A stretch of 64,000 nucleotides of DNA from a bacterium (GTDB taxonomy: Bacteria > Patescibacteriota > Microgenomatia > Daviesbacterales > UBA10151), in the NCBI GenBank assembly GCA_021786105.1, contig JAJYNW010000010.1, forward strand, positions 35,330-99,329, given 5' to 3'. Positions 1 through 33,861 of the stretch are shown one piece after another. The notes under the pieces are model-generated. The model was not told the origin of the DNA and did not search any database. It saw only the letters and a program-made list of their open reading frames with translations. Positions within the stretch are counted from its first letter, which is position 1. Each line of letters begins with the position of its first letter. The position numbers and the translations under genes were made by a program.

Positions 1-267
1 AAAGGCGGCCGAGAAGACTCAGTATTAAAGGAAGAGAGTGAGGCAAAAGTTTTAGAAAACTATTTGCCAGCCCGTCTGTCAACTGAGGAATTGACTAAAA
101 TTGTTGAGGGTACTATAAATGAGTTGGGAGCCAGTACTATGCAGGATATGGGAAGAGTGATAGGAGCGGTGATGGGTAAGGTTAAGGGTCAAGCGAGTGG
201 CGGTGCAGTATCGGCTATTGTTAAAGAAAAGTTGTCAACTCTACAAGAAGGCTCTTCGGAGCCGTAG
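1..267 (+). CDS. GatB/YqeY domain protein (5' truncated by window)
   Basis: Open frame from base 1 (KGGREDSVLKEESEAKVLENYLP...MQDMGRVIGAVMGKVKGQASG), typical YqeY C-terminus. Confidence 0.85.
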   Translation, partial: KGGREDSVLKEESEAKVLENYLPARLSTEELTKIVEGTINELGASTMQDMGRVIGAVMGKVKGQASGGAVSAIVKEKLSTLQEGSSEP

Positions 268-268
268 G

Positions 269-342
269 CCTGAGCGGTTAGCGAAGGATTGCGGTCGGAA
301 TGTGGAAGATTGCCACGTCGCCTTCGGCTTCTCGCAATGACA
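269..342. repeat. Composite palindromic repeat (CCTGAGC..GAAGGA unit + AGATTGCCACGTCGC..CTCGCAATGACA half-element)
   Basis: 307-342 matches the right arm of the copies at 11091-11124, 23840-23873 and 30647-30680; 269-288 resembles 17880-17907 and 32681-32700. Confidence 0.8.
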
Positions 343-353
343 GAGAAACATTT

Positions 354-767
354 ATGGTAAATATCATTGTAAATTCTGACCCCAGATATAATATTAATAA
401 AGACAGCATTAAGACTGCAGTATCAGAGATTTTATCCCAGCATCGTATCTCTGGTAAGGTTGAATTAGGGATTAATATTGTGGGTGACCGGAAAATGCAT
501 GAACTCAATCGTAAGTATCGCGGTTTAGACTCTACCACCAATATTTTATCTTTTGCCTTAGAAGATTCTAATCCGGCCAACTTGCAACATATTCCCAGGA
601 TTGGTTTTGTGGCAGCACCTGATAAGTGGTTGAGGTTGGGTGATATTATCATTTCCTACCCACAAGCTTTGGAAGATGCTTCAATGGACGGAATTTCGGT
701 TGATGAGGAGATTAGGGATTTAGTAGAGCATGGGTTAAACCATTTATTAGGGATTCACCACAATTAA
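354..767 (+). CDS. ybeY: rRNA maturation endoribonuclease YbeY
   Basis: LNRKYRG..TNILSF, LGDIIIS, EHGLNHLLG motifs. Start moved to ATG 354 because 300-353 is repeat-derived. Confidence 0.9.
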   Translation: MVNIIVNSDPRYNINKDSIKTAVSEILSQHRISGKVELGINIVGDRKMHELNRKYRGLDSTTNILSFALEDSNPANLQHIPRIGFVAAPDKWLRLGDIIISYPQALEDASMDGISVDEEIRDLVEHGLNHLLGIHHN

Positions 768-3582: not shown

Positions 3583-4530
3583 CTAAGCAACTTTGACTTG
3601 AGAGATAACTTTTATATTAGCTATTTCACTTAGTAACTTTTCAAACATTTTATCCTGATATTTTCTGTTATTGTATCTCCAACTATATTCATCAATATAT
3701 GCCTGTAAGTATTTTTTAGATACAACTCTGTACACTCCATAAATACCTCGTTTTAGAATTGACCAAAGATTTTCAACATTCTGGGTATAAATATCACCAA
3801 CTACATAAGTTTCTTTATGTTTTACAAAATCATGTTTATAACAGTGATATTTTAATTGGGTATATCCATAATATTCATCAGTTATAACTCGGGCTTTTGC
3901 ATCGACATGATTTTTAATCTGCTCAAGCAGTGTCCATTTGCCAGTATTGGGGATATGTTTTAAATATACTTTGTTGCCTCCTGTATCTGTCCCGTTTTTG
4001 TCTTGTTCATTTCTTTGCACCATTCCCATAACGACCTCTTTTGGTATTTCATTAAAGTTTGGTTTAAAAGCTCTATTTTTTCCTTTTCCTCCAATAAAAG
4101 TTTCATCTATTTCAACTGTGCCATCAAGTAGCTCACCATTACCACCTGAGCTTTCTGTACCAATCGTATTTACCATAAGCATTCTTATTTGCTTAAACAT
4201 TCTCCAGGCAGTTTTGTAGGTTACACCAAGCATCCGTTCTAATTGTTTTGCAGAAGTACCACTCCTGGTTTGGGTCATCAGATACATGGCAAAAAACCAA
4301 AGATCAAGTGGGGTTGTAGTTTTTTCAAAAATAGTTCCAGCAAGTGGATAAATGTGATGACCGCAATTATTGCAAGCGTAAGCAGTTCTTCCTTTAACAG
4401 TATAAAACTTTTCTTTTCCTTTGCATTTGGGACATTCCATTAAGTCGGAGAAACGAAGTCTTTTAATTACCTCAAGACACTGCTCATGAGTACCATATTC
4501 TTGTCTAAATTCTTTGAGGCTAAATTTCAT
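3583..4530 (-). CDS. IS1595-family transposase
   Basis: CPKC...CNNC zinc ribbon, TYKTAWRM HTH, VEIDETFIGG, ITDEY, TQNVENLWSILKR, YIDEYSWRYN. Confidence 0.95.
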   Translation of the reverse strand: MKFSLKEFRQEYGTHEQCLEVIKRLRFSDLMECPKCKGKEKFYTVKGRTAYACNNCGHHIYPLAGTIFEKTTTPLDLWFFAMYLMTQTRSGTSAKQLERMLGVTYKTAWRMFKQIRMLMVNTIGTESSGGNGELLDGTVEIDETFIGGKGKNRAFKPNFNEIPKEVVMGMVQRNEQDKNGTDTGGNKVYLKHIPNTGKWTLLEQIKNHVDAKARVITDEYYGYTQLKYHCYKHDFVKHKETYVVGDIYTQNVENLWSILKRGIYGVYRVVSKKYLQAYIDEYSWRYNNRKYQDKMFEKLLSEIANIKVISQVKVA

Positions 4531-8253: not shown

Positions 8254-8255
8254 GG

Positions 8256-9623
8256 ATGTTAAAGCTATATAACACACTATCACGAAAAGTTGAGGACTTT
8301 GTTCCTATAAATACACCAAAGGTTGGACTTTATACTTGTGGCCCGACCGTTTATAACTTTGTCCATATCGGCAATTTAAGAACTTATATTTTTGAAGATA
8401 TTTTGCAGAGGGTTTTAGAGGCTGATAGTTATGAAGTCAACAGAGTGATAAATATTACTGATATCGAAGACAAAATTATCAAAAAAGCTGAGGAAGAAAG
8501 AGTAAGTATTGAGGTCATTACCAAGCCGTACGAGCAGGCTTTTTTGGAAAATTTACAAAAACTTAATATTAAATCAGCCAATGTTTATCCTAGGGCCACC
8601 GAGCACATTGGCAAAATGATCAAATATATTGAAGTTTTGATTGAAAAGGGTTTGGCGTATGTGGAAAAAGATGGGTCAGTGTATTTTGATATTTCCAAAT
8701 TCCCGGAATATGGGAAGTTATCTCAGCTTGATAAACGGGAAATTAAAGCCGGAGCTAGGGTAAAAGCTGATGAATATTCCAAAGAAGATGTTGTCGATTT
8801 TGCCTTATGGAAAGCAGTCGGGTCGGATGAAATTGGTTATGATTCGCCGTGGGGCAAGGGTCGGCCGGGTTGGCATATTGAATGTTCGGTGATGAGTCAG
8901 GAATATTTGGGGGATACTTTTGATATTCACGCCGGAGCGGTTGATTTAATTTTTCCTCATCATGAAAATGAGATAGCTCAGTCTGAGGGTAAAACCGGTA
9001 AGAAGTTTGCTAATTTTTTTATTGAAGGCGAGCATTTGTTGGTAGACGGCCAAAAAATGGCCAAGTCTTTGGGTAATTTTTTCACCTTGAAGGATATTGA
9101 AGCCAAAGGATTTGACCCTTTGGCTTTCAGGTATTTGGTATTAACTGCCCATTACAGGGACAAATTAAATTTCACCTGGGAATCTTTGCAGGCTGCCCAA
9201 AATGCTTTAAATAATTTAAGGGAAATTATTCGTGATTGGCCTTCTTCTGTCATTGCGAGCCCCGAAGGGGTGCGGCAATCTTATTACCAGAAATTTATGA
9301 GTGCTGTCAATAATGATTTAAATATACCCCAAGCTTTGGCGGTAATGTGGGATATGGTCAAATCTGATAATCCAACTTCTGCCAAAGCCAAATCAATTTT
9401 GGAAATGGATAAAATTTTAGGCTTAAAGTTAGATGAATATTTAGGGAAAAAACTGGAAATTCCGGAAGAAGTACAAAAGTTAGTTAACCAAAGGGAACAA
9501 GCGCGTAAATCTGGAGACTTCAAAAAATCAGATGAACTGCGCCATGAAATTAAAAAACTAGGTTTTGAAATCGAAGATACTCCTCAAGGTCCCAAAATAA
9601 AAATTGACAAACAGCCCTCCTAG
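8256..9623 (+). CDS. cysS: Cysteine--tRNA ligase
   Basis: YTCGPTVY, HIGN, GRPGWHIECS, FPHHENE, KMAKS. Confidence 0.97.
   Translation: MLKLYNTLSRKVEDFVPINTPKVGLYTCGPTVYNFVHIGNLRTYIFEDILQRVLEADSYEVNRVINITDIEDKIIKKAEEERVSIEVITKPYEQAFLENLQKLNIKSANVYPRATEHIGKMIKYIEVLIEKGLAYVEKDGSVYFDISKFPEYGKLSQLDKREIKAGARVKADEYSKEDVVDFALWKAVGSDEIGYDSPWGKGRPGWHIECSVMSQEYLGDTFDIHAGAVDLIFPHHENEIAQSEGKTGKKFANFFIEGEHLLVDGQKMAKSLGNFFTLKDIEAKGFDPLAFRYLVLTAHYRDKLNFTWESLQAAQNALNNLREIIRDWPSSVIASPEGVRQSYYQKFMSAVNNDLNIPQALAVMWDMVKSDNPTSAKAKSILEMDKILGLKLDEYLGKKLEIPEEVQKLVNQREQARKSGDFKKSDELRHEIKKLGFEIEDTPQGPKIKIDKQPS
9248..9281 (+). repeat. Palindromic-repeat half-element in frame in cysS
   Basis: TGTCATTGCGAGCCCCGAAGGGGTGCGGCAATCT encodes VIASPEGVRQS; same family as 11042 and 23840. 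Confidence 0.85.
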
Positions 9624-9642
9624 ATATAAACTATCGGATAAT

Positions 9643-10161: not shown

Positions 10162-10212
10162 TTTATTTCCTGATTTTTATTTTCTTCACGGCTGTGAACA
10201 TTTTGGAAATCA

Positions 10213-10329
10213 AGATTGCTTTGTCGCTTTTTGTCATCGCGAGACCAGAAGCGACAAAATAGCCAATGGTTGTGGTATATTTTGTATAAAATCCTTAGGT
10301 GTAGCTACACTTCCACCTCGGAGGTGGAA
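10213..10329. repeat. Cluster of degenerate palindromic repeats
   Basis: AGATTGCT.., stem TTTGTCGCTT/AAGCGACAAA with TGTCATCGCGAG in its loop, GTGTAGCTACAC (10299-10310), TTCCACCTCGGAGGTGGAA (10311-10329). Confidence 0.6.
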
Positions 10330-10382
10330 TCAGAATTACATAGATAGTTTTGAGCGGTTGAATTGTGGTAAACTAGATCCTT

Positions 10383-11081
10383 GTGGAAACTGAAGTTATT
10401 ACAATTGACGGGCCGACCAGTTCCGGGAAAAACAGCGTGGGTTTTTTACTGGCGCAAAAATTAGGCTACCAATATATTGATTCCGGTTCAATTTACCGGG
10501 CCGGCAGTATTTTCGTTTTGCGGAACAATATTTCCCCAGATAGCGAAAAAGTTGCGGAAGTTTTCAAAAATCTGCAAATAGAAACTAAAACTCAAGATCA
10601 TGAGGTGAGGTTTTTGGTAAATGGGGAAGATATCACAGATCATTTGCATGATCCCGAGGTGACTAAAACTGTTCCAATTGTTGCTGCTATTGGGGAGGTT
10701 AGAGAAGAGGTTAAAAAAATCCAATACAATTTAGTAAATTCTAAAAATACGGTTATGACCGGTAGGGATATCGGTTCAGAAATTTTTCCCGATGCCATGC
10801 ATAAGTTTTATTTAACTGCTTCAGTTGAAGTAAGAGCCCAAAGGCGTTTTAAGCAGTTAGTGGAAAAAGATCCAAAAGTAAAATATGAGGAAATTTTGAA
10901 GAGTATGGAAGACAGGGATGAGAAGGATATGACTAGAGAGGTGTCCCCCTTACGGATTCCGGAAGATGCGGTGGTGATAGATAACTCGGATTTAACTATT
11001 GAACAAACAGTGGAAAAGATGTTGAAGTATATACAATCAAATGTCATTGCGAACGAAGTGAAGCAATCTGGGTCGGGTTAA
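10383..11081 (+). CDS. cmk: Cytidylate kinase
   Basis: ITIDGPTSSGK, YIDSGSIYR, GRDIG, RDEKDMTREVSPL; C-terminal tail repeat-derived. Confidence 0.95.
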   Translation: METEVITIDGPTSSGKNSVGFLLAQKLGYQYIDSGSIYRAGSIFVLRNNISPDSEKVAEVFKNLQIETKTQDHEVRFLVNGEDITDHLHDPEVTKTVPIVAAIGEVREEVKKIQYNLVNSKNTVMTGRDIGSEIFPDAMHKFYLTASVEVRAQRRFKQLVEKDPKVKYEEILKSMEDRDEKDMTREVSPLRIPEDAVVIDNSDLTIEQTVEKMLKYIQSNVIANEVKQSGSG

Positions 11082-11124
11082 ACATTAACTAGATTGCTTC
11101 GTCACTCCGTTCCTCGCAATGGCA
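11042..11124. repeat. Full two-armed palindromic element spanning the cmk stop
   Basis: TGTCATTGCGAACGAAGTGAAGCAATCT...AGATTGCTTCGTCACTCCGTTCCTCGCAATGGCA. Confidence 0.9.
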
Positions 11125-16016: not shown

Positions 16017-17937
16017 CAAAGGTACAGGTACTAATCTACAAGCAATCATTAACGGGGTAGAAAGCGGAAAAATTCCGGCTAAAATTGCAGCGGTAATTTC
16101 TGATACACCTGAAGCGCAAGGTTTAACAAGAGCCAAAAAACACAGACTTCCAATTAAAATAGTTCCGAAAAAAGAAGGACTGTCAGCAGTATTAAAAAAG
16201 CTGAACCCTGATTATATTTGTTTGGCTGGATGGAAACAGATTATTTTGGATGAGGTGATTGAGGCATTTCCTAATCGAATTTTAAATGTTCACCCCGGGC
16301 TTATACCGGATACAATGGACGGAGTTGTTAAAAATCCGGACGGAACCAACGGTCTATGGAATAAAGGGAAAATGACCGATAAGGCCATGCAGAACTTTTT
16401 TGATAATAAGGCAACATATGCCGGTTCAAGCATTCATTTCTTAACTTTGGAATTTGATTTCGGACCGGTATTGGGTAGAGGTTTTGAAGAGATAAGACGC
16501 GGGGATACCGTTGAATCTTTATATTCTAGATTAAAAATCAAAGAGAATAAATTGTATGCAGAGGTTTTGGCAAAACTTTGTTCTTCCCAAACCGTCTTAA
16601 TTATTGATGGAGGCGGAAGAGGGTCAGTGCTGGTTGATAAATACGGGCAAAGCGAACAAATAGGGAAAATTTTAGTTATTCCCGGTAACGATCTGATGCA
16701 AATCAATACCAAAAAGCCGGTGATGACTTACCAACATTTGAAAACTACATCAGTTGACGAAATTTTAGAAATTTGCCAAAAAGAAAAAGTGGATTTAGTG
16801 GATGTAGCTCAGGATAATGCAGTGGAAGTTGGGTTAGTAGATAAGCTGCAAAAAAATAAAATACCGGTAGTTGGTCCAACCAGGTTAGCCGGACAAATCG
16901 AATGGGATAAAGGATGGTCAAGGGATTTTATGAGAAAATATCAAATTGCGCACCCTAAGTATTATGTTTTCTCAACGGAAAAGGATGGAATAAAATTTGC
17001 AGAAGAATCAGAAAACCCTAAATGGTTTGTGAAAGCGGCTGGTTTGGCAGAGGGTAAAGGGGTGATACCGGCAGAGAATAAAAAAGATGTAATTAACGCT
17101 ATCAAGCAAATGAGTAAATTTGGCAGCTCCGGCAAAACTTACTTATTGGAGGAATGGCTAACAGGTGAAGAATTCTCGGCTTTTGCAATTTGCGATGGGA
17201 AAACTTTTAAATTGGTAGGTTTTGCTCAAGACCATAAAAGGGTAGATGATGGCGATCAAGGTCCTAATACCGGAGGGATGGGTTGTGTGTCCAGTCCTTT
17301 AATAGTTGATAAAAATATTAAAAGCCAGATAGAGGAAATCTTTAAAAAAGCTATGGCAGGTTTAAAAAAAGAAAAAAGGCCATACCAAGGAGTTTTGTAT
17401 TTGGGTGGGATAGTAGTTGGAGGAAAAACTTATGTAATTGAATTTAATGCCAGGTGGGGAGATCCGGAGGCAGAAGTAATTGTGCCGTCTATCAAAAATG
17501 ATTTGTTTGATTTATCAAAGGTTATAATTTCGGGAAGGATTAAAGACTTTGATGTCAGAACAGATAACAAAGTTAGAGTGGCAGTAGCGGGTGCAGCAAA
17601 AGGTTATCCGGTTGATTATTCTAAAGTTAAAGGTAAAAAAGTGTTGGGAATTGATAAAGCTATGCAAACAGGAGTTAAAATTTATGGCGCGGGTATTAAA
17701 AAAATTGACGGAGATTTTGTAGTTAATGGTGGCAGGGTTTTATATATGGTGGCGGAAGGAAAGAATATTATGGACGCAAGAGAAAAAGCTTATAAAGCTA
17801 TGAAATTGATAAAAATTGAGGGAGATAACTTGCATTACAGAAAAGATATTGGTTGGAGGGATGTTGAGCGAATGCGAAATCCTGAGCGAGCGAAGCGAGT
17901 CGAAGGAGAAAGGCTGAAAAATGATACAAAAAGTTAG
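15988..17937 (+). CDS. purD: PurN-PurD fusion (GAR transformylase + GAR synthetase)
   Basis: N-terminal IAVLISNKGTGTNLQA..NVHP..DFGP (PurN); C-terminal GLAEGKGV, QDHKR..GPNTGGMG, EFNARWGDPE (PurD). Confidence 0.92.
   Translation: MKKIAVLISNKGTGTNLQAIINGVESGKIPAKIAAVISDTPEAQGLTRAKKHRLPIKIVPKKEGLSAVLKKLNPDYICLAGWKQIILDEVIEAFPNRILNVHPGLIPDTMDGVVKNPDGTNGLWNKGKMTDKAMQNFFDNKATYAGSSIHFLTLEFDFGPVLGRGFEEIRRGDTVESLYSRLKIKENKLYAEVLAKLCSSQTVLIIDGGGRGSVLVDKYGQSEQIGKILVIPGNDLMQINTKKPVMTYQHLKTTSVDEILEICQKEKVDLVDVAQDNAVEVGLVDKLQKNKIPVVGPTRLAGQIEWDKGWSRDFMRKYQIAHPKYYVFSTEKDGIKFAEESENPKWFVKAAGLAEGKGVIPAENKKDVINAIKQMSKFGSSGKTYLLEEWLTGEEFSAFAICDGKTFKLVGFAQDHKRVDDGDQGPNTGGMGCVSSPLIVDKNIKSQIEEIFKKAMAGLKKEKRPYQGVLYLGGIVVGGKTYVIEFNARWGDPEAEVIVPSIKNDLFDLSKVIISGRIKDFDVRTDNKVRVAVAGAAKGYPVDYSKVKGKKVLGIDKAMQTGVKIYGAGIKKIDGDFVVNGGRVLYMVAEGKNIMDAREKAYKAMKLIKIEGDNLHYRKDIGWRDVERMRNPERAKRVEGERLKNDTKS
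17880..17907 (+). repeat. Short repeat unit in frame in the PurN-PurD tail
   Basis: TCCTGAGCGAGCGAAGCGAGTCGAAGGA encodes PERAKRVEG; related to 269-288 and 32681-32700. Confidence 0.75.
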
Positions 17938-20707
17938 AGTACAAACAATAGGGCAACAAAACATTAAAGTTTATCGACTAGAGGGAATATTAGAAAAAGA
18001 CGCCAAAATTTTGGCTGAAAAATTACTATCGGAATCAATCAACCAAAGGTATGCAATTAACCGTCCAATCCACCTCGAAGGAGTTAAAGCCCACCTTCGA
18101 GGTGTGGCTGTAATAGAAATTGCTTATAAACCAGGGGTCATGAACCCGGAAGTAACATCGATTATGAAAGCTGCTTCTGATTTGGGGATTAAACTAATTG
18201 CCTGCGATAGCTCCATGGAGTACCTTAATAAAAAGGTTTCCTTTAATCCTTTAATAGAACATATAGTGACAGAAGAACCGCAAACACTTTTAATCAAAGA
18301 AAAACAAAGTCAAACTCAAATAATCCCAATCAGAAATCTTAATGATAAAGAGCTTTTGGATTTATCCAAAGATAAACTTTTCTTAAATTTGGAAGAAATG
18401 CAAACCATCCAAAAATATTTTCAAAAAATCAACAGAGATCCGACTGATTTAGAACTGGAAACTTTAGCTCAAACTTGGAGCGAGCACTCCGGTCATAAAA
18501 CTTTTAAAGCGAAATTAATTGTCGACGGCAAAGAAAAAGAACCGCTAATCCAAAGGATCAAAAAAGAGGCTTTGAAACATAATAAAAATATTGTGTCAGC
18601 ATTTGAGGATAATTCCGGGGTGATGGATTTTTATGATGGTTTCGGAATTTGCGGCAAAGTGGAAACCCACAATGCTCCGTCAGCTATTGAACCATATGGC
18701 GGGGCAATGACCGGTTCGGGTGGGGTGTTTCGCGATATCGCGGCAACCGGAAAAGGCGCAAAAAATATAGCCTCAACCGATATCTTTTGTTTTGCGCCGG
18801 TTGATTTACCTATTGAGAAATTACCTCAAGGTTGTTTGCCGCCGGAATATTTATTAAAAAGGGTGGTAGCCGGAGTGAGGGATTACGGGAATAGAATGGG
18901 AATTTCGACTAATAACGGATCAGTGCATTTCCAGGAAGATTTTCGGGCCAGACCAACAGTGATTGTGGGGGCATACGGCATAGTGCCGAAAAAATATGCT
19001 TTAAAAGACAAGCCGAAAATTGGAGATTTGATAATTTGTGTGGGCGGGCGGACAGGCAGGGATGGAATTCACGGAGCCACTTTTTCTTCCGGTGAAATGA
19101 CTGAACGGACAATTGAAGTGCATTCTTCAGCGGTGCAAATTGGCAATGCCATTGAGGAAAAAAGAATGTTTGATGCGCTCTTGGAAGCTAGAGACAGAGA
19201 TTTAATCAGGTTGATACAGGATGTCGGTGGTGGAGGATTCTCGTCAGCTGTCGGTGAAATTGGAGAAAGTTTAGGGGTATCAGTTGATATTAAAAATGCG
19301 CCGTTAAAATACCAGGGTTTAGCACCTTGGGAAATTTGGGTGTCAGAGTCCCAGGAAAGAATGGTGGTGGTTTTAGAGGAAAAGAATCTGGAAGGATTTA
19401 AAGACCTTTGCAAAAAACATAACGTGGAGATGGCAGTTTTAGGAAAGTTTGATGGCAGTAAAAAATTAAACGTGACTTTTGGAGAGGAAGTTGTCGGCGA
19501 TTTAGATATGCATTTTTTGCATAAAGGGTTACCGAAAAGAATTCTTAAAGCCACCTCTCCTGTCATTCTGAGCACAGCGAAGAATCTCGAGATTAATGAA
19601 TTTAGAGATCCTTCACTAATCGTTCAGGATGACAAAATTGAAGAGCCAAAAACAGAAAAAGAATGGATTGAAGTTTTGAAAAAGGTTTTGGGTCACGGTA
19701 ATGTTTGTTCAAAAGAGCCAATTGTCCGGATGTATGACCATTCGGTCCAGGGGACTAATGATTTGCAGCCCTTTTCCGGTGTAACTTTAGACGGGCCAAA
19801 TGATTCTCCGGTTTTGCGGCCATTCTTGGATAAAAAATATGGCATGGTAATTTCTCATGGATTAAATCCGATACTAAATAATATTGATCCATATTGGGGG
19901 AGTATTTGGGCAGCAACAGAAAGCTTATCAAATTTTGTGGCAGTGGGAGGAGACTATAAAGAAGCTTGTCTGATAAATAATTATATTTGGCCGTTTCCGG
20001 ATGAGGAATCACTTTGGTCATTGGATAGATCTGTTGATGCAGTAGTAGATTTTATGAAAGTTTTCCAAATCCCGGTAATTTCAGGCAAGGATAGTTTGTC
20101 CTCAACTTACCGGGCAGCAAACGGCACGATTATTAAAATTCCCCCAACACTTTGTATGTCAGTTTTTGGCAGAATTCTTGATGTCGATAAAACTGTCACT
20201 GCTGATTTTAAGAAAGTTGGTTCAACAATTTTGTTGGTAGGAAAAACGGATAAAAGTTTAGGCGGATCCATATATTATCAAGTAAATAATTTAGAAGGAA
20301 ATTCTTTGCCGAAAGTAGATTTGAAATTATTGTCAGAAGTTTTTACAGCAGTTAATAACGCAATAACAAATGGAAAAGCATTAGCAGTTCACGATGTATC
20401 AGAAGGGGGAATAATTTCTACAATCTTTGAAATGTGTGTGGGCGGAGGGATGGGGGCAGATATCCACCTCGAAGGAGTCAAAGCCCACCTTCGAGGTGAT
20501 CAGATTTTGTTTAACGAAACTGCAGGGTGTTTTATTGTTGAGGTGGAAAACAAAAAAGTCGCTGAGCGACTTTTTAAAAATATTCCTTATCACATCTTAG
20601 GAGAAACAAAAGTAGATCAAAAAATAGAAGTAAAAAATCTGTTTAAAGCCGACGTTAATGATTTGAAAAAAGCTTGGCAGGAACCAATGAGGAGGTGCTT
20701 CAAATGA
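17921..20707 (+). CDS. purL: FGAM synthase subunit PurL (probable N-terminal PurS-like region)
   Basis: QTWSEHSGHK, KVETHNAPSAIEP, SESQERM, GKDSL, HDVSEGG. Confidence 0.95.
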   Translation: MIQKVRVQTIGQQNIKVYRLEGILEKDAKILAEKLLSESINQRYAINRPIHLEGVKAHLRGVAVIEIAYKPGVMNPEVTSIMKAASDLGIKLIACDSSMEYLNKKVSFNPLIEHIVTEEPQTLLIKEKQSQTQIIPIRNLNDKELLDLSKDKLFLNLEEMQTIQKYFQKINRDPTDLELETLAQTWSEHSGHKTFKAKLIVDGKEKEPLIQRIKKEALKHNKNIVSAFEDNSGVMDFYDGFGICGKVETHNAPSAIEPYGGAMTGSGGVFRDIAATGKGAKNIASTDIFCFAPVDLPIEKLPQGCLPPEYLLKRVVAGVRDYGNRMGISTNNGSVHFQEDFRARPTVIVGAYGIVPKKYALKDKPKIGDLIICVGGRTGRDGIHGATFSSGEMTERTIEVHSSAVQIGNAIEEKRMFDALLEARDRDLIRLIQDVGGGGFSSAVGEIGESLGVSVDIKNAPLKYQGLAPWEIWVSESQERMVVVLEEKNLEGFKDLCKKHNVEMAVLGKFDGSKKLNVTFGEEVVGDLDMHFLHKGLPKRILKATSPVILSTAKNLEINEFRDPSLIVQDDKIEEPKTEKEWIEVLKKVLGHGNVCSKEPIVRMYDHSVQGTNDLQPFSGVTLDGPNDSPVLRPFLDKKYGMVISHGLNPILNNIDPYWGSIWAATESLSNFVAVGGDYKEACLINNYIWPFPDEESLWSLDRSVDAVVDFMKVFQIPVISGKDSLSSTYRAANGTIIKIPPTLCMSVFGRILDVDKTVTADFKKVGSTILLVGKTDKSLGGSIYYQVNNLEGNSLPKVDLKLLSEVFTAVNNAITNGKALAVHDVSEGGIISTIFEMCVGGGMGADIHLEGVKAHLRGDQILFNETAGCFIVEVENKKVAERLFKNIPYHILGETKVDQKIEVKNLFKADVNDLKKAWQEPMRRCFK
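18068..18104 (+). repeat. 37-nt hairpin repeat in frame in purL (copy 1)
   Basis: ATCCACCTCGAAGGAGTTAAAGCCCACCTTCGAGGTG, 11-bp perfect stem, encodes IHLEGVKAHLRG. Confidence 0.9.
19561..19634. repeat. Full palindromic element in frame in purL
   Basis: TGTCATTCTGAGC..GAAGAATCTC...GAGATCCTTCACTAATCGTTCAGGATGACA; last 31 nt identical to the intergenic copy 27095-27167. Confidence 0.92.
20462..20498 (+). repeat. 37-nt hairpin repeat in frame in purL (copy 2)
   Basis: One mismatch to 18068-18104; same peptide IHLEGVKAHLRG. Confidence 0.9.
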
Positions 20708-23045: not shown

Positions 23046-23074
23046 TTGACATCTCTTTTGCCTTATAGTATGAT
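23046..23074 (+). promoter_or_regulatory. Sigma70-type promoter of orphan gene
   Basis: TTGACA 23046-23051, 17 bp, TATGAT 23069-23074; ATG at 23085. Confidence 0.7.
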
Positions 23075-23084
23075 CACAAAAATT

Positions 23085-24985
<1,901 letters not shown>

Positions 24986-24987
24986 TT

Positions 24988-26004: not shown

Positions 26005-27089
26005 TGAATAATTACACAATTGCTGTTTTAGGTTCTCACTCTGCTTTAGACGTTTGCCGGGGTGCAAAAGATTTAGGATTTAGGACTTTAGTGATTTGCA
26101 AAAAGGGAAGAGAAAAAACTTACAAAGATTATTATGCTTCTAATGGCAAATTAGGTTGTGTTGATGAAGTGATTGTGCTGGATGAATTTAAAGATATTTT
26201 AAATAAAGAGATCCAAGAAGAACTCCTTAAAAAAAATTGTATTTTTGTTCCCCACCGGTCTTTTGAAGTTTACATCAATGATTACAATGCGATTGAGAAA
26301 AAATTTAAAGTGCCGATGTTTGGGAACAGGTTCTTATTAAAAGCGGAAGAACGGGGAGTCAAACCAAACCAATATGATTTATTGGATGCGGCCAAAATCC
26401 GCTACCCCAAACAATTTAAAAATCCGGAAAGTATTGACCGGCTTTGTATTGTTAAAGTTTTGGAAAAAGAACGGGGATTTGAAAGGGCATTTTTCTTTGC
26501 CGAATCTTTTGAAGAGTATAAAGTGGGAGTAGCTCATGGATTGGGTCTAGGCAAGTTTACTGAGGAGCAGATAAAAGCAGCAGTGATTGAGGAATTTATT
26601 GTGGGGGTGCAAGTAAATTTTAATTTCTTTTATTCACCAGTAAACAAACGGCTCGAACTAATTGGGACTGATACCAGAAGGCAAACTAATATTGAGGGTT
26701 TAACTAAATTACCATCTATTTACGAAGAAGAGTTAATTAAAAAGATTGGAGTCAAATATGAAGAAGCCGGACATATTGCGGTGACGGTTTTAGAATCACT
26801 TTTGGAAGATGCATTCGCAATGGGGGAAAGATTTGTAGAGGCTACTCAAAAAATGGTTAAGACCGGTGTGATTGGTCCATTTGGTTTGCAAACTATGATT
26901 ACGGCTGGTCCGCCTAAAAAAGAAATAATTGTTTTTGATGTTTCACCCAGAATGCCGGGGAGCCCGGGAATTTTTGCAACTCCGTACGGTAATTATTTAT
27001 ATGGTGAGCATTTATCGATGGGTAAAAGAGTCGCCATGGAAATAAAGGAAGCTTTAGAGAAAGGAGAGTTAGACAAAGTTTTAACTTAA
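26001..27089 (+). CDS. purP: Second PurP-like paralog
   Basis: VLGSHSALDVCRGAKDLGFRT, VPHRSF, ERAFF, DVSPRMPGSP. Confidence 0.82.
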   Translation: MMNNYTIAVLGSHSALDVCRGAKDLGFRTLVICKKGREKTYKDYYASNGKLGCVDEVIVLDEFKDILNKEIQEELLKKNCIFVPHRSFEVYINDYNAIEKKFKVPMFGNRFLLKAEERGVKPNQYDLLDAAKIRYPKQFKNPESIDRLCIVKVLEKERGFERAFFFAESFEEYKVGVAHGLGLGKFTEEQIKAAVIEEFIVGVQVNFNFFYSPVNKRLELIGTDTRRQTNIEGLTKLPSIYEEELIKKIGVKYEEAGHIAVTVLESLLEDAFAMGERFVEATQKMVKTGVIGPFGLQTMITAGPPKKEIIVFDVSPRMPGSPGIFATPYGNYLYGEHLSMGKRVAMEIKEALEKGELDKVLT

Positions 27090-27094
27090 CATAT

Positions 27095-27167
27095 TGTCAT
27101 TCTGAGGCGTAGCCGAAGAATCTCAAGATTTAGTCCAGAGATCCTTCACTAATCGTTCAGGATGACA
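27095..27167. repeat. Intergenic full palindromic element
   Basis: TGTCATTCTGAGGCGTAGCCGAAGAATCTC...GAGATCCTTCACTAATCGTTCAGGATGACA, 7 nt before the purH ATG. Confidence 0.92.
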
Positions 27168-27174
27168 GAAACAT

Positions 27175-28713
27175 ATGAAAACTGATAAACGATTCGCCTT
27201 GCTGAGTGTTTATGATAAAACCGGAATTGCTGATTTTGCTAAAGTGCTCCAAAAGTTAGAATATACCATCATTTCCACAGGCGGCACACTAAATGTTCTA
27301 GAAGAAAACGGCGTTAAGGTAATACCGATTGATGAAATTACCGGTAACCCTAGGGATTCGTTTGACGGCCGGATGAAAACCATTAGTTTCCAAATTGAGT
27401 CAGGTATTTTATTTGATAGAAAAAATTTCAAGCATGTGACAGAAGCTAATAAACTGAATGTGCCGCAAATCGATATGGTGGTTTGTAATCTTTACCCGTT
27501 TGAAGAAAAACCCGGTATTGAAACAATTGATGTGGGTGGTCCAACTATGATCAGGGCAGCTGCCAAAAATCATAGCAATGTTTTAGTTGTAGTTAGCCCG
27601 GATGATTATGGATTAGTAGCTGATGCTTTGGAGAAAGGAAAGGTAACTGATAAATTAAGAAAGGAATTAGCATCAAGAGCCTTTTACCATTTATCGTTTT
27701 ATGATTCCCAAATTGGCAACTTTTTCTCTGATAAAAAATTTCCTAAGGAATTAACAGTACCACTTAGAAGATTAAGCGTTTTGCGGTATGGGGAAAACCC
27801 GCACCAGGCCGGTGCTTTATATTTAATGCCAAAGGCTAATTCTCCTTTAGGTAAATTGAAACATCTTTGGGGTAGGGAATTATCCGGTACAAATATCGGA
27901 GATATCTATACCGGCTTGGAAACTGTTAGGCAATTTAGCGAACCGGCGGCAGCAGTGATGAAACATTTGAGTCCTTGCGGGATAGCTACCGGTAAGACGG
28001 CCGAAGAAGCATTAGACAGAGCAGTAAAAGCAGATCCGGTTTCCGCCTTTGGCGGGGTAGTTGTTTTGAATAAACCAATGGACTTGAAGGCGGCCAAAAT
28101 TATTGCCACTTTTAAAAACGAAAAAGAAGGTAATACGGATATCGTGGCAGTGCCGGAAATTTCTGCAGATGCTTTGGAGCTTTTGAAAAAAGTTAGAAAA
28201 ACTATGGGAGTTTATACCTTTGGTAAGATTCCTGCAAACAGGACTGAAAATTGGGATTTGAAATATTTTGCCGGGGCAGTACTGTTGCAGGATTATGATG
28301 ATAATGTAGAAAAAAGTTTTGCTAGTTGGAAAGTCGTGACTAAGAAAAAGCCAACTCAAAAACAGCTGGAGCTAATGCATTTTGGTTTTAAGGCAGTAAA
28401 GGCGGTTAAATCAAATTCTGTTTTGGTGGTGGATAAAAATATCCCAATGACGCGAGGAATTGGTTCCGGACAAACTTCCCGGATTGGAGCTACTAAAATT
28501 GCTTTGGAACAAGCCGGGGATTTGGCCAAAAGTGGTATTCTAATAAGTGACAGCTTTTTTCCGTTTGATGATAGCGTTAAGATGGCGGTGAAATTTGGCA
28601 TTGGGGTAATCGCGGAACAGGGCGGATCGATAAATGACCAGATGTCCGTGATAGCTGCTGATGAGGCTGGTATTGCAATGGTGTTTACCGGAAGGAGGGC
28701 ATTCAGACACTAA
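27175..28713 (+). CDS. purH: Bifunctional AICAR transformylase/IMP cyclohydrolase
   Basis: ALLSVYDKTG, STGGT, IDVGGPTMIRAAAKN, LRYGENPHQ, FTGRRAFRH. Confidence 0.93.
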   Translation: MKTDKRFALLSVYDKTGIADFAKVLQKLEYTIISTGGTLNVLEENGVKVIPIDEITGNPRDSFDGRMKTISFQIESGILFDRKNFKHVTEANKLNVPQIDMVVCNLYPFEEKPGIETIDVGGPTMIRAAAKNHSNVLVVVSPDDYGLVADALEKGKVTDKLRKELASRAFYHLSFYDSQIGNFFSDKKFPKELTVPLRRLSVLRYGENPHQAGALYLMPKANSPLGKLKHLWGRELSGTNIGDIYTGLETVRQFSEPAAAVMKHLSPCGIATGKTAEEALDRAVKADPVSAFGGVVVLNKPMDLKAAKIIATFKNEKEGNTDIVAVPEISADALELLKKVRKTMGVYTFGKIPANRTENWDLKYFAGAVLLQDYDDNVEKSFASWKVVTKKKPTQKQLELMHFGFKAVKAVKSNSVLVVDKNIPMTRGIGSGQTSRIGATKIALEQAGDLAKSGILISDSFFPFDDSVKMAVKFGIGVIAEQGGSINDQMSVIAADEAGIAMVFTGRRAFRH

Positions 28714-30613: not shown

Positions 30614-30680
30614 GTGATTAGCCGAAAGATTTCCCACGGACTGGGAAGATTGCCACGTCGCTACGCTCCTCGCAATGACA
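30603..30680. repeat. Hybrid palindromic element supplying the purE stop codon
   Basis: TGTCGTCCTGAG..GCCGAAAGATTTCCC...GGGAAGATTGCCACGTCGCTACGCTCCTCGCAATGACA. Confidence 0.85.
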
Positions 30681-31667: not shown

Positions 31668-31693
31668 GACAGATATAATTTAATATAAGCTTT

Positions 31694-32677
31694 ATGGCAA
31701 GTAGCAACGGTTTTGTATTATTAACAGGAACTGCAAATTTAAAGCTGGCAAGAGATATTGCTAAAGCTTTAGGTAAAGATGCTGACGAAACCGTGACGGT
31801 TTTTTCTGACGGCGAAAAAAGAGTTATCATCCCCGAGAATTTACGTAAACGCGATGTTTTCATTATCCAACCAACCTGTCCGCCGGTTGATGCTAATATC
31901 GTCGAGCTTCTTTTAATCATTGATGCAGCCAAAAGGTCATCCGCCAATGAAGTTTCTGCAGTTATTCCTTATTTCGGTTATTCAAGACAAGACAGAAAAG
32001 ACAGGCCTAGGGTCCCGATATCTGCATCTTTAATTGCCAGATTAATAGAATTTGCTGGTGCAGATCGGATTATTTCAGTTGATATCCATAGTGAACAAGA
32101 GCCGGGTTTTGTCGAAATCCCCTGGGATGTCTTATATGGAAGCTATGCACTTCTGCCGGAGCTAAAAAAGAATTTTCCTGATGGAGATTTAGTGATAGCA
32201 TCACCGGATAAAGGCGGGGTTCCTAAGGCCACCTTTTATGCGGATTTACTTAAAGCGTCAGGCGTGGCCATTGTTTATAAGGAAAGAGATGTGATGAAAG
32301 CAAACGAGAGTCAGGTGATGGATATGATAGGTGATGTTAAGGGTAAAAATGTATTAATTGTTGATGACATGATTGATACAGCCGGCACTATTTGCAACGC
32401 TGCCCAACTAATTAGGGAAAGAGGAGCAAAAAGCGTATCTGCTGCAGCCACTCACGGGATTTTCTCCGGTTCGGCGCCCGAAAGAATCAAGGCTGCTGAT
32501 TTTGATAAAATTTTTATCACTGATACTGTGCCAATCAGAAAAGAAATGATGGATAATCCGAAGTTGACAGTAGTTTCTATCGCTAATCTTTTAGCAGAAG
32601 CTATTAAACGTATTTATCAAGGTGATTCGCTTTCTGAAGAATTAATTCCCAAAGGCCATAAAGAAGAAAGAAACTGA
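31694..32677 (+). CDS. prs: Ribose-phosphate pyrophosphokinase
   Basis: FSDGE, PYFGYSRQDRK, SPDKGG, VDDMIDTAGT. Confidence 0.96.
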   Translation: MASSNGFVLLTGTANLKLARDIAKALGKDADETVTVFSDGEKRVIIPENLRKRDVFIIQPTCPPVDANIVELLLIIDAAKRSSANEVSAVIPYFGYSRQDRKDRPRVPISASLIARLIEFAGADRIISVDIHSEQEPGFVEIPWDVLYGSYALLPELKKNFPDGDLVIASPDKGGVPKATFYADLLKASGVAIVYKERDVMKANESQVMDMIGDVKGKNVLIVDDMIDTAGTICNAAQLIRERGAKSVSAAATHGIFSGSAPERIKAADFDKIFITDTVPIRKEMMDNPKLTVVSIANLLAEAIKRIYQGDSLSEELIPKGHKEERN

Positions 32678-32680
32678 AAA

Positions 32681-32700
32681 TTCTGAGCAACGTCGAAGGA
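32681..32700 (+). repeat. Short repeat remnant between convergent prs and purM
   Basis: TTCTGAGCAACGTCGAAGGA resembles 17880-17907 and 269-288. Confidence 0.55.
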
Positions 32701-33861
32701 TTAACGTAAATCCAAAGTTTCGCCCCCAAAGGTAATATTTTTTGACTTGATAACAACTTGTCTTTTTCCTTCTTCCAAATATCCAGCGTCCAAGCTTTCA
32801 AAACCATTTTCCTTGATAATTTCTTGAGCTTTTTCGACATCCTCAGTCGGTAAGAATATTGCATAATCTTGCCCCATGTTATAAGTGCCGTACATTTCCT
32901 CATCGGACAAATTGCTGTGTTTCTGAATAAAAGCAAATAATTCCGGGGCGGGATAAACCTTTTCTATCACGTAAACGAAATCTTGAGGCGCCCGCATAAC
33001 TTTGCGAAGTCCATGGCCGGTTATATTGGAGATGTAATGGATATTCACCCATTGATCAAGTAAGCTCTGGATTAATTTGACATAAATATTAGTTTTGGAA
33101 AGAAGTGCTTCGCCGTACAATTGTCCGCTGGGAAGTTTGGTTGCGTATCCATCAGGTAATTCTTTAGCAACTGCTCTGGCCAGCGAAACTCCATTAGCAT
33201 TAATGCCGTTGCTTTTTAAGAAAATAATTCTGTCTCCTTTTTGTAAATTCCCGGCTTTGATTAACCGGCCATTTTTAATGGTTCCTATGGCTGATCCGGC
33301 CAGATCAACAGTTCCTTCCTTAATAATTCCTTTAAGCGTAGGTGTTTCTCCGCCGCCCCAAGCTACTCCTGACTCATTACAAGCATTTTTCCAGCCTTGG
33401 ATTAAATCTTTCATTCTTTCTTCGTCCTGCAGCCAGCTGTTATCCTCGATGGCCCAATAGGCATGCAACACAAACGGCTTAGCTCCTGAGGTAATAAGGT
33501 CGTTTATTATTGTAGCCACGGTATCATGGGCGATAATATCGTAATAAGTTTTCTTGGTGATTGTTCTCATCTCGTCCGCCACTAAGTTTTTTGTCCCCAA
33601 TCCTTCAATTACCGAAGCCATGAAGGTTTTTTCATCAACTTGCCAAACAAAGGCTGATTCGCCCCGGCTGTCTGATATTTCTTTATAATTAATTGCTGCT
33701 AAATTTTTAGCGGTTTGGGCTGCCGCGGTTTGGGCTAATTTTTTAATCGGATCTTTGGTGCCGTAGTTGTCTCCGACTTGAGAATAAGTCAAGCTTGTCG
33801 CTGCGCGATAAGTGATAGATTGTTTATTACGAAGTGACAAACTTGTTTTATCTTGTGCCAT
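32701..33861 (-). CDS. purM: AIR synthetase (divergent PurM)
   Basis: EGLGTK, GGETP, SNGINANG, NITGHG, TYNMG; likely start ATG 33861. Confidence 0.88.
   Translation of the reverse strand: MAQDKTSLSLRNKQSITYRAATSLTYSQVGDNYGTKDPIKKLAQTAAAQTAKNLAAINYKEISDSRGESAFVWQVDEKTFMASVIEGLGTKNLVADEMRTITKKTYYDIIAHDTVATIINDLITSGAKPFVLHAYWAIEDNSWLQDEERMKDLIQGWKNACNESGVAWGGGETPTLKGIIKEGTVDLAGSAIGTIKNGRLIKAGNLQKGDRIIFLKSNGINANGVSLARAVAKELPDGYATKLPSGQLYGEALLSKTNIYVKLIQSLLDQWVNIHYISNITGHGLRKVMRAPQDFVYVIEKVYPAPELFAFIQKHSNLSDEEMYGTYNMGQDYAIFLPTEDVEKAQEIIKENGFESLDAGYLEEGKRQVVIKSKNITFGGETLDLR
33792..33843. repeat. Degenerate hairpin in the purM N-terminus
   Basis: AGCTTGTCGCT/AGTGACAAACT stem; minus strand TGTCACTTCG..AAACAATCT resembles TGTCATTGCG..GCAATCT. 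Confidence 0.55.

Follow-up and report, generated by a model that had tools for sequence, protein, structure and literature searches.

The window examined here (the whole 64-kb stretch of DNA that was analysed) belongs to a CPR genome of about 1 Mb and is rich in short hairpin repeats. With a probability of about 80%, they comprise two systems: a superfamily of tagged hairpins linked to genes of small GIY-YIG nucleases, and an independent hairpin family linked to RAYT-like genes, copies of both surviving in frame as translated loops of core proteins. The initial annotation had divided the repeats into four families, A to D. Its places hold what was described in 17 of 18 cases, the exception being position 33792, where the closing stem is absent and which is not counted as a unit; the three peptides that it quoted read as stated.

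A superfamily of tagged hairpins

Families A, B and C, previously taken as three, form one superfamily of oriented hairpins with the general structure (T/C)GTCAT-stem-loop-stem-ATC(T). Each unit has an unpaired (T/C)GTC tag and a stem beginning in AT, in most cases a tandem G.A mismatch as well, and closes with ATC(T). The inner stem-loop is variable in length and sometimes nested. Units of the GAACTTGTTTC type have a stem of 8-9 bp and a loop of 4-5 nt, and those of the GAG..GAAG type have a 5-bp stem, the tandem G.A, an inner stem and loops of 3 to more than 12 nt.

Depending on the scan, the genome contains 85-91 canonical copies, compared with 0-5 in random genomes, and the expected genome-wide enrichment is thereby borne out. 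The strict scan found 85 matches, against 0, 0, 2, 1, 0, 0, 5, 0, 0 and 3 in ten Markov-1 random genomes; with G-U pairs permitted, 91 were found against 5 in the random control. The reversed pattern gave 0 forward matches and 1 reverse match, compared with 42 and 42 for the true pattern. A relaxed scan allowing one deviation (129 matches, control 105) was discarded as too noisy.

The stems covary. Among 99 sites chosen by the 5' decamer GTCAT[TC][GC][CT]GA alone, 81 are followed within 60 nt by a perfect complement of their own AT+3-nt stem and then by a C. These belong to the classes ATCCT (24), ATTGC (23), ATTCT (14), ATTCC (10), ATCCC (9) and ATCGC (1), and five stem variants, each with its own complement, are present. 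In the 48 rows of alignment A3, the tag is TGTC in 38, CGTC in 9 and AGTC in 1, and the tail T is found in at least 90%; columns A5 and T6 are invariant, but an AT at this place was demanded by the selection pattern. In the MAFFT alignments A1 and A2, the ATTGC family was misaligned by one column. A covariance model from the other families (A3, R1) returned 73 matches at E ≤ 1; most of these were the sequences on which it had been built, and almost the whole ATTGC family escaped it. Explicit pattern scans were therefore used.

The family C core, YCTGAGS..SGAAGRA, occurs 31 times in the genome, compared with 2-4 times in five random genomes. A GTCA(T) tag is borne by 21 of these cores, and all three copies in the window are among the 10 untagged ones. 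Family C is made up of decayed, tag-less cores of A/B-type units.

Pairing is strictly ordered: in all 24 adjacent pairs, which take up 48 of the 91 units, a (+) unit is followed by a (-) unit with the tags pointing outwards, and other arrangements number 0. This is the geometry of the flanks of Ssn-type nuclease genes, with no gene between. The unit thus occurs in three forms: it bounds two intact Ssn-type genes, it makes up 24 inverted pairs that enclose no gene, and it stands alone.

Units in the window

The window contains 10 canonical units, all before 31 kb: four inside genes (one in cysS, two in purL and one in purA), one that forms the C-terminal tail of cmk, and five in intergenic regions. 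The earlier estimate was that about half of the repeats lie inside ORFs; of family D, two of the three copies in the window are in purL.

At the left end, a decayed, tag-less family C unit (264..291, +) overlaps the yqeY stop and is the left partner of a canonical ATTGC-type unit (308..341, -) between yqeY and ybeY; the Pfam YbeY match begins at residue 34 of the ORF 300-767. A rearranged, decayed ATCGC/ATTGC-type copy is intergenic (10213..10262, +). The inverted pair at 11043..11123 has outward tags on both strands; its (+) unit (11043-11068) supplies the final codons of the cmk ORF, and its (-) unit (11092-11123), with the tag GCCAT, precedes an M16 peptidase gene. Another inverted pair (27096..27166, both strands) separates purH from the second purP-like gene, with units at 27096-27122(+) and 27140-27166(-), and its right unit is 97% identical over 34 nt to that of the pair in purL, which points to recent copying. 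Between purE and purC lies a canonical ATTGC-type unit (30648..30679, -), whose ATGAC tag provides the first ATG of the listed purC ORF. Two further decayed, tag-less family C cores are found in the C-terminal tail of the purN-purD fusion, past its last Pfam domain (17880..17915, +), and between prs and purM (32681..32702, +). No tRNA was found in the window. An IS1595 DDE transposase is also present within it.

Half of the canonical window units (5 of 10) lie exactly at gene boundaries, and the superfamily may be kept mainly for a host function, as terminators, mRNA stabilisers or NTS-like limits on the uptake or recombination of ssDNA. Most REPs are found 3' of genes, possibly with a role at the RNA level (PMC3733652), and NTS together with SsnA lower the integration of transforming DNA in Neisseria (PMC11893778). 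However, 34 of the 91 units (~37%) lie inside genes, 24 in number, where a terminator would harm, and because the two members of a pair point in opposite directions, any transcript through a pair reads one of them in antisense. Close congeners differ in the presence of units at the same site. The distribution over the phylum is patchy, with at least one match in 100 of 151 genomes and at least 10 in about 40 of 150 (hand count), and Rfam gave no match in the window at its gathering threshold. Host function as the main reason for the repeats is therefore improbable.

Ssn-type nuclease genes

As the initial annotation had stated for the window, no candidate mobiliser is at hand there: the window's entire contig carries neither a GIY-YIG nor a Y1 transposase gene. 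Elsewhere in the genome, where it had proposed to look for them, two Ssn-type genes lie between tagged units and four RAYT-like genes between D-type hairpins. The GIY-YIG ORFs C3:5297-5587 and C9:18117-18413 each have a (+) unit upstream and a (-) unit downstream, so that two of the three small GIY-YIG genes of the genome have repeats on both sides. Their products score 59-65 bits with Pfam GIY-YIG, and their protein profile matches the UPF0213 structures 1zg2 and 1ywl. Both are predicted to be Ssn-type nucleases, with putative membership of cd10448 and putative cleavage of ssDNA.

The link between nuclease and repeat extends beyond this genome. Ssn-type homologues are present in 19 of 19 genomes of the genus, and the best loci (17) have tagged units on both sides in 15 cases, upstream only in one and tag-less cores only in one. 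Across phyla, oriented tagged hairpins occupy both sides of 49 of the best 80 loci, the upstream side only of 10 and the downstream side only of 10, and 11 have none; the opposite orientation was counted at 21 and 25 of the 80, which is not a clean null, since pairs are common. Several of the cross-phylum homologues, which share 49-58% identity with the query, have in their flanks GTCATTCCCGCGAAGGCGGGAATC, a sequence that agrees with the NTS consensus of Neisseria as given in PMC11893778.

Family D and RAYT-like genes

Family D is a real repeat, as previously described, but it is a separate, low-copy hairpin that belongs to a different system than A to C. Its long form is a 37-nt repeat found at two of the insert sites of purL, site 1 (18068..18104, +), which reads IHLEGVKAHLRG, and site 3 (20462..20498, +); the two are 97% alike, and both are in frame. 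The genome contains three long copies, all in frame inside genes (purL twice, topA). A scan for the long stem gave 27 matches against 16-26 by chance, only 3 of which are the true 34-nt element, and a scan for the short form gave 10 against 1-6 by chance. Solo hairpins are located at C21:57693 and in the window at 10311..10329, where an intergenic TTCCACCTCGGAGGTGGAA represents the type seen at the flanks of RAYT-like genes.

The four RAYT-like genes of the genome are diverged copies (congeners have 0-9), and a D-type hairpin is present on both sides of all four. Within the genus, at least 24 of 26 RAYT-like loci show the same hairpin and tail on both sides. In the present genome the flanks consist of TTCCACC..GGTGGAA followed by GTATTGACACC, and across the genus the hairpin varies between gene lineages; the flank of one lineage, CACCTCGAAGGTG+TAAAGCT, is closely similar to the long D element in its left arm and loop. 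A GTAG tag 5' of the hairpin is absent from these flanks, and only the C20 copy has a GGTAG, inside the stem. The proteins contain HFH and YIHLNP motifs and score 33-36 bits with Pfam Y1_Tnp (cut-off 23) and 43-60 bits with NCBIfam NF047646 REP_Tyr_transpos, under its curated cut-off of 80; a search by sequence found no PDB structure for them.

REPs are known as inverted doublets mobilised by RAYTs (PMC3116915, PMC3337134), and with four RAYT-like genes in the genome, one of them (C26) only 220 nt from a GTCAT unit, all four families could be REP/REPIN sequences copied by RAYT-like transposases, with the GIY-YIG genes as bystanders. The unit at C26, however, belongs to a truncated Ssn-type gene remnant that adjoins the RAYT-like element. 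At the loci counted above, RAYT-like genes are flanked by D-type hairpins and not by GTCAT units, which instead flank the GIY-YIG genes, both in the genus and across phyla. A single RAYT-driven origin is thus very improbable.

Repeats inside genes

The units inside genes are not spread evenly over the reading frames. The 17 forward units are read in the VI.. frame (10) or the RH/CH.. frame (7) and never in the third, and 16 of the 17 reverse units are read in the ..ND frame, with one in the hydrophobic ..AMT frame. The host genes include those for RecG, UvrA, PolA, a RecF-like protein, CysS and PheT.

In cysS, a 48-nt cassette (9240..9287, +) is inserted in frame. It is composed of the 9-nt leader CCTTCTTCT, a hairpin (9249-9280) and the tail TTATTAC, is translated as PSSVIASPEGVRQSYY, and takes the place of a 33-nt native segment. 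The purA cassette (23834..23881, -), also of 48 nt and in frame, contains a hairpin at 23841-23872, is read as 16 residues and takes the place of 12 nt of native sequence. The inverted pair in purL (19562..19633) consists of an ATTCT unit (19562-19586, +) and an ATCCT unit (19607-19633, -) and reads, in frame, VILSTAKNLEINEFRDPSLIVQDD. The mapped cassettes replace 12-33 nt of native sequence with no target duplication, which is not what simple cut-and-paste predicts.

Comparison with orthologues, as had been proposed, found the insertions to be lineage-specific. Among 17 purA genes, the site is filled in 3 and empty in 14 (13 congeners and one genome of another family). Of 18 genomes, 3 carry this same cassette at the cysS site, 2 have different repeat cassettes there and 13 have none; the three insert sites of purL are variably filled among congeners. 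The same loops of PurL and CysS carry, in different congeners, different repeat families or the same family reversed. This genome has the cysS cassette in common with the genomes G013 and G007, and it is missing from the two closest relatives. By sliding-window identity the gene is a mosaic, the first ~850 nt being near G015 and G018 and the remainder about equally near all, a pattern compatible with shared descent, exchange or independent gain of the cassette. By these alignments, the inserts are lineage-specific additions to the proteins. The earlier proposal of a mobile repeat system agrees with the presence and absence of copies among congeners and with the near-identical copies; mobility is inferred from these patterns, and neither transposition nor excision nor a read of an empty site was observed. 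A PurA model from a 15-sequence alignment (mean pLDDT 65.9, pTM 0.69) places the insert between strands 341-349 and 381-388; the insert is of low confidence in a poor model, as are many other segments, and nothing firm was drawn from it.

The cysS cassette aligns gap-free to a native stretch of a solved CysRS, and the shared peptides might accordingly be selected protein motifs or ancient conserved loops instead of inserted DNA. This explanation is already contradicted and has next to no probability left: the same DNA units are also found outside genes, in either orientation, and are read in four frames, the purA insert is absent from solved PurA homologues and from 13 of 16 congeners, and 13 of 18 genomes of the genus have a conserved native cysS segment that differs from the cassette.

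An assembly or binning artefact that joined foreign repeats into host genes is the least probable explanation and practically negligible: Logan contigs do break at units, and the purA unit is matched in each run by 17-42 contigs whose flanks differ, but the cysS cassette (X1 and X3) and the purA cassette (X4) are spanned by independent contigs, which come from two studies, separately assembled congeners bear the same cassettes at the same sites, and all host reading frames remain open. No Logan contig showed a joint that removes an element exactly, a weak test, as these contigs drop rare variants.

Possible origin of the copies

In the preferred reading of two hairpin systems, Ssn-type nucleases would copy the A to C hairpins via single-stranded DNA, and family D would derive from the hairpin and tail that flank the four RAYT-like genes, whose HUH tyrosine-transposase products would copy it. 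New copies would appear from time to time, and, because about 89% of the genome is coding, many would land in genes. Selection alone would account for the in-frame copies: those that survive would keep the frame, avoid the frame that bears stops, encode a polar peptide and lie in a permissive loop. In CysS, PurA, PurL and about 20 further core proteins, the survivors would form translated loops that are particular to the lineage.

It is conceivable, though doubtful, that cassettes enter genes by replacement and not by clean transposition. An excised single-stranded hairpin might be captured at a gap or break, or short patches might be exchanged between co-living congeners. This idea draws on the replacement of 12-33 nt without target duplication, on the different or reversed repeat families in the PurL and CysS loops, and on the almost identical cysS cassette in non-sister alleles of a mosaic gene.

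Significance

In a 1-Mb CPR genome, at least 20 core enzymes are documented here to carry nuclease-linked hairpin repeats as translated sequence, and the case illustrates that GIY-YIG-linked and HUH-Y1-linked hairpins, which are unrelated systems, can colonise one gene. Such inserts break metagenome assemblies, inflate the number of "lineage-specific" loops and can give false start codons, so these repeats should be masked or flagged in CPR genomes. The five co-resident stem variants are candidate enzyme-site pairs for single-stranded DNA tools. If the replacement route were true, the two systems would act as a source, recurrent and exchangeable, from which essential CPR enzymes gain new surface loops.

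Comparison with known systems

A hairpin-repeat/nuclease system of this kind is already in print, and the copies described here are a variant of it. Chenal et al. 2025 (PMC11893778) describe NTS and Ssn-related hairpins as ssDNA substrates that small GIY-YIG Ssn nucleases bind and cut, and put these nucleases forward as tools for single-stranded DNA. The superfamily resembles NTS/SRM sequences in its GTCAT tag 5' of an oriented 20-50 nt hairpin closing with ATC, in its tens to hundreds of copies, and in the repeat-gene-repeat arrangement around a small, single-domain GIY-YIG gene. It differs in its AT-rich 5-bp stems with tandem G.A and nested inner hairpins, where NTS stems are GC-rich and 8-9 bp long, and in its share of in-gene units, for which 2% is stated for N. 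meningitidis (PMC11893778). The SRM string of that paper, HGTCWYN(0-2)YYVSBRHN(0-5)WNVSBRGN(0-2)RNCYNB, fits 0 of the 91 canonical units, for which reason the superfamily is called a variant; it matches 8 other sites of the genome, against 3, 1, 3, 1 and 0 in five random genomes. The published string therefore misses whole classes of Ssn-associated hairpins, which also flank Ssn homologues in many phyla. The genome and motif lists in Supplementary Data 3-5 of PMC11893778 may already cover CPR genomes or the stem variants described here.

The literature search found no paper linking CPR or Patescibacteria with REP, RAYT, SsnA or GIY-YIG repeats; in the available text of PMC12455944, a GIY-YIG protein is merely named among transferred genes. 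A full-text search with four 11-nt motifs gave only unrelated primer matches among the matches listed.

The likeness to RPE- and REP-type repeats seen in the initial annotation can be made more specific: the units are built like the CGTC/TGTC-tagged REPs, a group to which Neisseria dRS3 and Rickettsia RPE-4 and RPE-6 belong (Di Nocera, De Gregorio and Rocco 2013, PMC3733652). Common features are the unpaired C/TGTC tag, AT-initial stems, a short tail, a majority of inverted dimers, and some copies in genes, notably those for DNA replication and repair and tRNA synthetases. The families of PMC3733652 have stems of 8-9 bp and loops of 4-5 nt, whereas many units here are mismatched or nested, with the wider range of loops given above. 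PMC3733652 reports no dedicated enzyme for CGTC repeats, and the present host phylum is not named in the sections consulted.

Rickettsia palindromic elements are comparable in that palindromes lie in frame in essential genes and are read as extra peptide. Ogata and colleagues are said to have described in 2000 their in-frame insertion in protein genes. RPE-1 is about 100-150 bp long, whereas the units here measure 25-48 nt, or 70-80 nt as pairs, and have candidate enzymes in the same genome. Rickettsia in-frame palindromic elements are also mentioned in PMC3733652.

Family D is closest to the REP/RAYT and IS200/IS605 systems (PMC3116915, PMC5581495, PMC3479197, PMC6006769). It differs from REP/RAYT in that the GTAG tag is missing, four gene copies are present instead of one, solo hairpins are few, the proteins fall short of the NCBIfam RAYT cut-off, and all long copies lie in frame in genes. 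It shares with these systems a Y1 HUH gene between its own hairpins, a hairpin and gene that change together between lineages, and scattered solo hairpins.

A superfamily of tagged hairpins

The palindromic elements reported in the window (G000:C6:35330-99329) by the initial annotation were borne out by a repeat finder and by direct reading. The source genome has 1.04 Mb in 26 contigs and 40% G+C, and selection by the 5' decamer GTCAT[TC][GC][CT]GA alone gave 99 sites in it. Nearly all of these consist of (T/C)GTC, AT plus three nucleotides, GA, an inner stem-loop, the complement of the three nucleotides plus AT, and C(T). Genome-wide searching, the check proposed initially, placed the units in excess over random sequence. 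The strict scan, which required GTC, then a 5-nt stem that starts with AT, then GA and, within 60 nt, the exact complement with C after it, found 85 units in the genome, compared with 0, 0, 2, 1, 0, 0, 5, 0, 0 and 3 in ten Markov-1 random genomes; with G-U pairs permitted, there were 91 units versus 5 in the random control. A separate pattern search gave 42 + 42 matches, and the reversed pattern 0 + 1.

The stem classes of the strict scan are ATCCT (24), ATTGC (23), ATTCT (14), ATTCC (10) and ATCCC (9), and each is closed by its own complement. This closure indicates hairpin covariation and unites families A and B of the initial annotation. Families A, B and C are thus real, but not distinct: stem covariation and a shared core make them one superfamily. 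Most units have an outer 5-bp stem, then GA on both strands, which reads as tandem G.A, and then the inner stem; others have the GA in Watson-Crick pairs (GAAC...GTTTC). GCGAAGC, the common core, forms a very stable DNA mini-hairpin. The tag-less version of the core makes up family C. Such cores number 31 in the genome versus 2-4 by chance, 21 of them tagged and 10 untagged, the latter including all three family C copies of the window. In longer units the theme recurs or a second core is nested, as in ATTGC units on contigs C3 and C18 and in the loop of the purA cassette of the congener G018. About half of the units (48/91) are paired, and all 24 adjacent pairs are arranged as (+) then (-), with the tags outward and a spacing of 6-48 nt.

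Ssn-type GIY-YIG genes flanked by the units

The contig of the window is without a small GIY-YIG gene or RAYT-like gene. The suggestion that repeat-flanked GIY-YIG genes might lie elsewhere in the genome proved fruitful: of three small GIY-YIG ORFs, two (C3:5297-5587 and C9:18117-18413) are preceded by a (+) unit and followed by a (-) unit. The C9 copy is an insertion that separates gatC from gatA. These Ssn-type proteins retain the GIY-YIG hallmarks (invariant Tyr, Tyr, Gly, Arg, His, Glu and Asn in the protein alignment), and their profile matches two UPF0213 structures.

Homologues occur in all 19 genus genomes; at the 17 best loci, tagged units lie on both sides in 15, upstream only in one, and one has tag-less cores only. 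More than 577 relatives turned up when species-representative genomes were scanned, and the best 80 span Proteobacteria, Bacteroidota, Cyanobacteria, Firmicutes, Actinobacteria, Planctomycetes, several CPR groups and others. Of these 80, 49 are enclosed by tagged hairpins in the expected orientation; another 10 have them only upstream and 10 only downstream, and 11 lack them. Several homologues in this set that share 49-58% identity with the query are bordered by GTCATTCCCGCGAAGGCGGGAATC, a sequence that agrees with the consensus for NTS, the Neisseria repeat cut by SsnA, in the accessible text of PMC11893778. G.A-type stems like those of this genome also lie beside homologues in Gammaproteobacteria and Cyanobacteria.

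A second hairpin system

Family D, initially grouped with A-C, belongs to a different system, tied to the flanks of RAYT-like genes. Besides one IS200-type TnpA, the genome encodes four diverged Y1 HUH ORFs of 216-231 aa; their matches to the NCBIfam RAYT model stay under its cut-off, and a sequence search returned no solved structure for them. The search for repeat-flanked TnpA(REP) genes suggested at the outset thus ends at these four RAYT-like genes, all outside the window: each has a short TTCCACCTCGGGGGTGGA-type hairpin on both sides in the same orientation, the upstream copy being followed by GTATTGACACC. The window hairpin at 10311 is of the TTCCACCTCGGGGGTGGA type. RAYT-like genes occur in 17 of 19 genus genomes (0-9 copies each), and the same hairpin plus tail is found on both sides at at least 24 of 26 inspected genus loci, the hairpin varying between gene lineages.

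CACCTCGAAGGTG plus TAAAGCT, the flank of one lineage, closely resembles the long D element (CACCTCGAAGG-AGTCAAAGCC-CACCTTCGAGGTG) in its left arm and loop. Among congeners, the element retains its loop while its stems covary, and it lies at the same two purL sites in both orientations; at one of these, site 3, G008 has a 13-nt collapsed form. The genome has only three long D copies, each of them in frame: purL has two, and topA has the third (G000:C6:13164-13197), which lies outside the window. The topA copy reads STSEESKPTSEV, a peptide also present at purL site 1 in G013 and G007.

At G000:C26:8905-9804 (L065/L250), a RAYT-like gene and both its hairpins directly adjoin a truncated Ssn-type remnant (C26:9600-9692), which is followed by its (-) GTCAT unit. 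Here, one of the two systems may have landed in the other.

Units in the window

Ten canonical units, nine exact and one with a GCCAT tag, lie in the window, all upstream of 31 kb; the unit scan found none from 31 to 64 kb. Four are interior to genes, namely one in cysS (9249-9280), an inverted pair in purL (19562-19633) and one in purA (23841-23872). Another forms the last codons of cmk, and five are intergenic, often abutting a stop or possible start codon. Of the places initially assigned to family A, the copy at 10213 is present in rearranged form, and there is no stem at 33792. As listed, the M16 peptidase (11119) and purC (30675) ORFs take their first start from the ATG of a reverse unit's ATGAC tag. 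Since their Pfam matches begin only at residues 19 and 31, respectively, both listed starts may be false, with the units in 5' leaders.

By Pfam, the first 35 kb are a purine-synthesis and housekeeping gene cluster. A purN-purD fusion lies at 15988-17937, purL (17921-20707) has an N-terminal extension of about 150 aa with a PurS-like look (KPGVMNPEV), and two tandem archaeal-type PurP-like genes (DUF1246/DUF1297) adjoin a purH at 24988-27089. The initial view that the window holds no mobiliser overlooked an intact IS1595-family DDE transposase gene with an ISXO2-like domain and a zinc ribbon at 3583-4530 (-), but nothing ties this gene to the hairpins.

Units inside genes

Across the genome, 36 of the 91 units lie within an ORF of at least 100 aa that extends 20 codons or more to either side. 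With two antisense ORFs and two ORFs lacking a Pfam match left out, the retained set comprises 34 units in 24 ORFs, one of which has only a weak DUF5457 match. The hosts are RecG, GlmS, MurT, PheT, L4, a class I tRNA synthetase, UvrA, a 6PGD-type enzyme, FemAB, MurB, YchF, an M1 peptidase, CarB, a RecF-like protein, PolA, the CCA-adding enzyme, a SpoU methylase, CysS, PurL, PurA and others. Two of the 34 units, with long AT-rich loops, are probably chance matches. Long ORFs cover about 89% of the genome, so unit density is roughly tenfold higher outside genes, which fits purifying selection.

In-gene orientation is balanced (17 forward, 17 reverse). Forward units are read as VI.. (10) or RH/CH.. 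(7) and never in the third frame, which has TGA in most variants; reverse units are read as ..ND (16) or the hydrophobic ..AMT (1). This bias, in small numbers (17 + 17), fits a filter on the encoded peptide.

Variable cassettes in purA, cysS and purL

Comparison of host proteins with orthologs, another check proposed initially, revealed lineage-specific inserts, as purA, cysS and purL are variably filled among congeners. Among 17 purA genes, those of the source genome, G018 and G017 carry the cassette, and those of 13 further congeners and of one genome from a different family lack it; solved PurA homologues are also without the insert. In the DNA of filled alleles, a 48-nt cassette composed of a 9-nt pyrimidine leader, a 32-nt hairpin and a 7-nt tail takes the place of the 12 nt seen in empty ones.

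A near-identical 48-nt cassette is found in cysS of the source genome, G013 and G007 among 18 genomes. G001 and G002 have other repeat cassettes in the same place, and in the other 13 it is taken up by a conserved native segment of 33 nt that encodes EEPKIGCAEFE. In the first ~850 nt of cysS (L113-L130), the source genome is 0.7-0.88 identical to G015/G018 and only 0.45-0.65 to the others; thereafter, identity is 0.75-0.86 among all. This change in the identity pattern suggests past recombination in cysS within the genus. Because the two closest relatives of the source genome are empty at the site and the gene is mosaic, the shared cassette may reflect descent, exchange or repeated gain alike. 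A second cysS-like gene, 40% identical, lies at G000:C20:9428-10540.

In purL, the inverted-pair site is a linker that holds differing repeats in different congeners, and occupancy of the two D sites varies. In relatives (L098-L111), the same loops of purL also house further repeat families, with peptides such as EFRVQSSEFRV and HLGGVTSSHLRGDRMGSSEV.

Independent Logan contigs, drawn from two studies, run through the cysS and purA cassettes. Other Logan contigs break at units, and dozens with other flanks match units. Across window 8001-28000 in sequencing runs X1 and X3-X5, nearly every unit coincides with Logan contig ends, and the bins that contain units show a 10- to 40-fold rise in word depth. 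These contig ends and the raised depth imply that the same hairpins are common in other members of the mine-drainage/tailings communities.

Distribution and mode of spread

In the phylum sample, 100 of 151 genomes, including the source genome, have at least one pattern match. By hand count, about 40 of 150 have at least 10, and the source genome, with 84, is among the richest. This patchy distribution fits a mobile or repeatedly expanding element. The genomes show the repeat, its structure, its partner genes and its variable presence. Judging from the published biochemistry of SsnA, Ssn-type proteins would recognise tag and hairpin on single-stranded DNA, and the shared geometry suggests that gene-less pairs may derive from repeat-gene-repeat units. 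At the few readable in-gene sites, all in variable loops, 12-33 nt of native sequence are replaced with no target duplication; capture or patch repair fits these junctions better than cut-and-paste.

Relation to known systems

The initial observation was sound and its interpretation right in kind, and the system is already described in print, to judge from the accessible text of PMC3733652 and PMC11893778. Di Nocera et al. (2013, PMC3733652) describe CGTC/TGTC-tagged REPs with AT-starting stems, mainly inverted dimers, among them Neisseria dRS3 and Rickettsia RPE-4 and RPE-6. Some lie in genes, often those for DNA repair and tRNA synthetases; no dedicated enzyme was found for these repeats in that study. 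According to Chenal et al. (2025, PMC11893778), the small GIY-YIG nuclease SsnA binds and cuts the Neisseria NTS CGTCATTCCCGCGMAVGCGGGAATCYRG as single-stranded DNA, and its homologues across phyla are flanked by Ssn-related motifs (SRM). The repeat-gene-repeat layout of ssnA loci is insertion sequence-like, and 2% of NTS in N. meningitidis are in genes.

None of the 91 units matches the degenerate SRM string in the accessible text of that paper, which speaks against simple SRM membership. The units appear to behave like Ssn-linked repeats and to travel with Ssn-type genes, yet they fall outside the published motif definition. A literature search, covering PMC11893778 in its main text, brought up no publication that deals with these repeats in CPR genes. 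Relative to the accessible text of the two studies, the present case adds stem classes that escape the published motif, a high in-gene share of units in a CPR genome, two hairpin systems co-resident in one gene, and replacement-type junctions.
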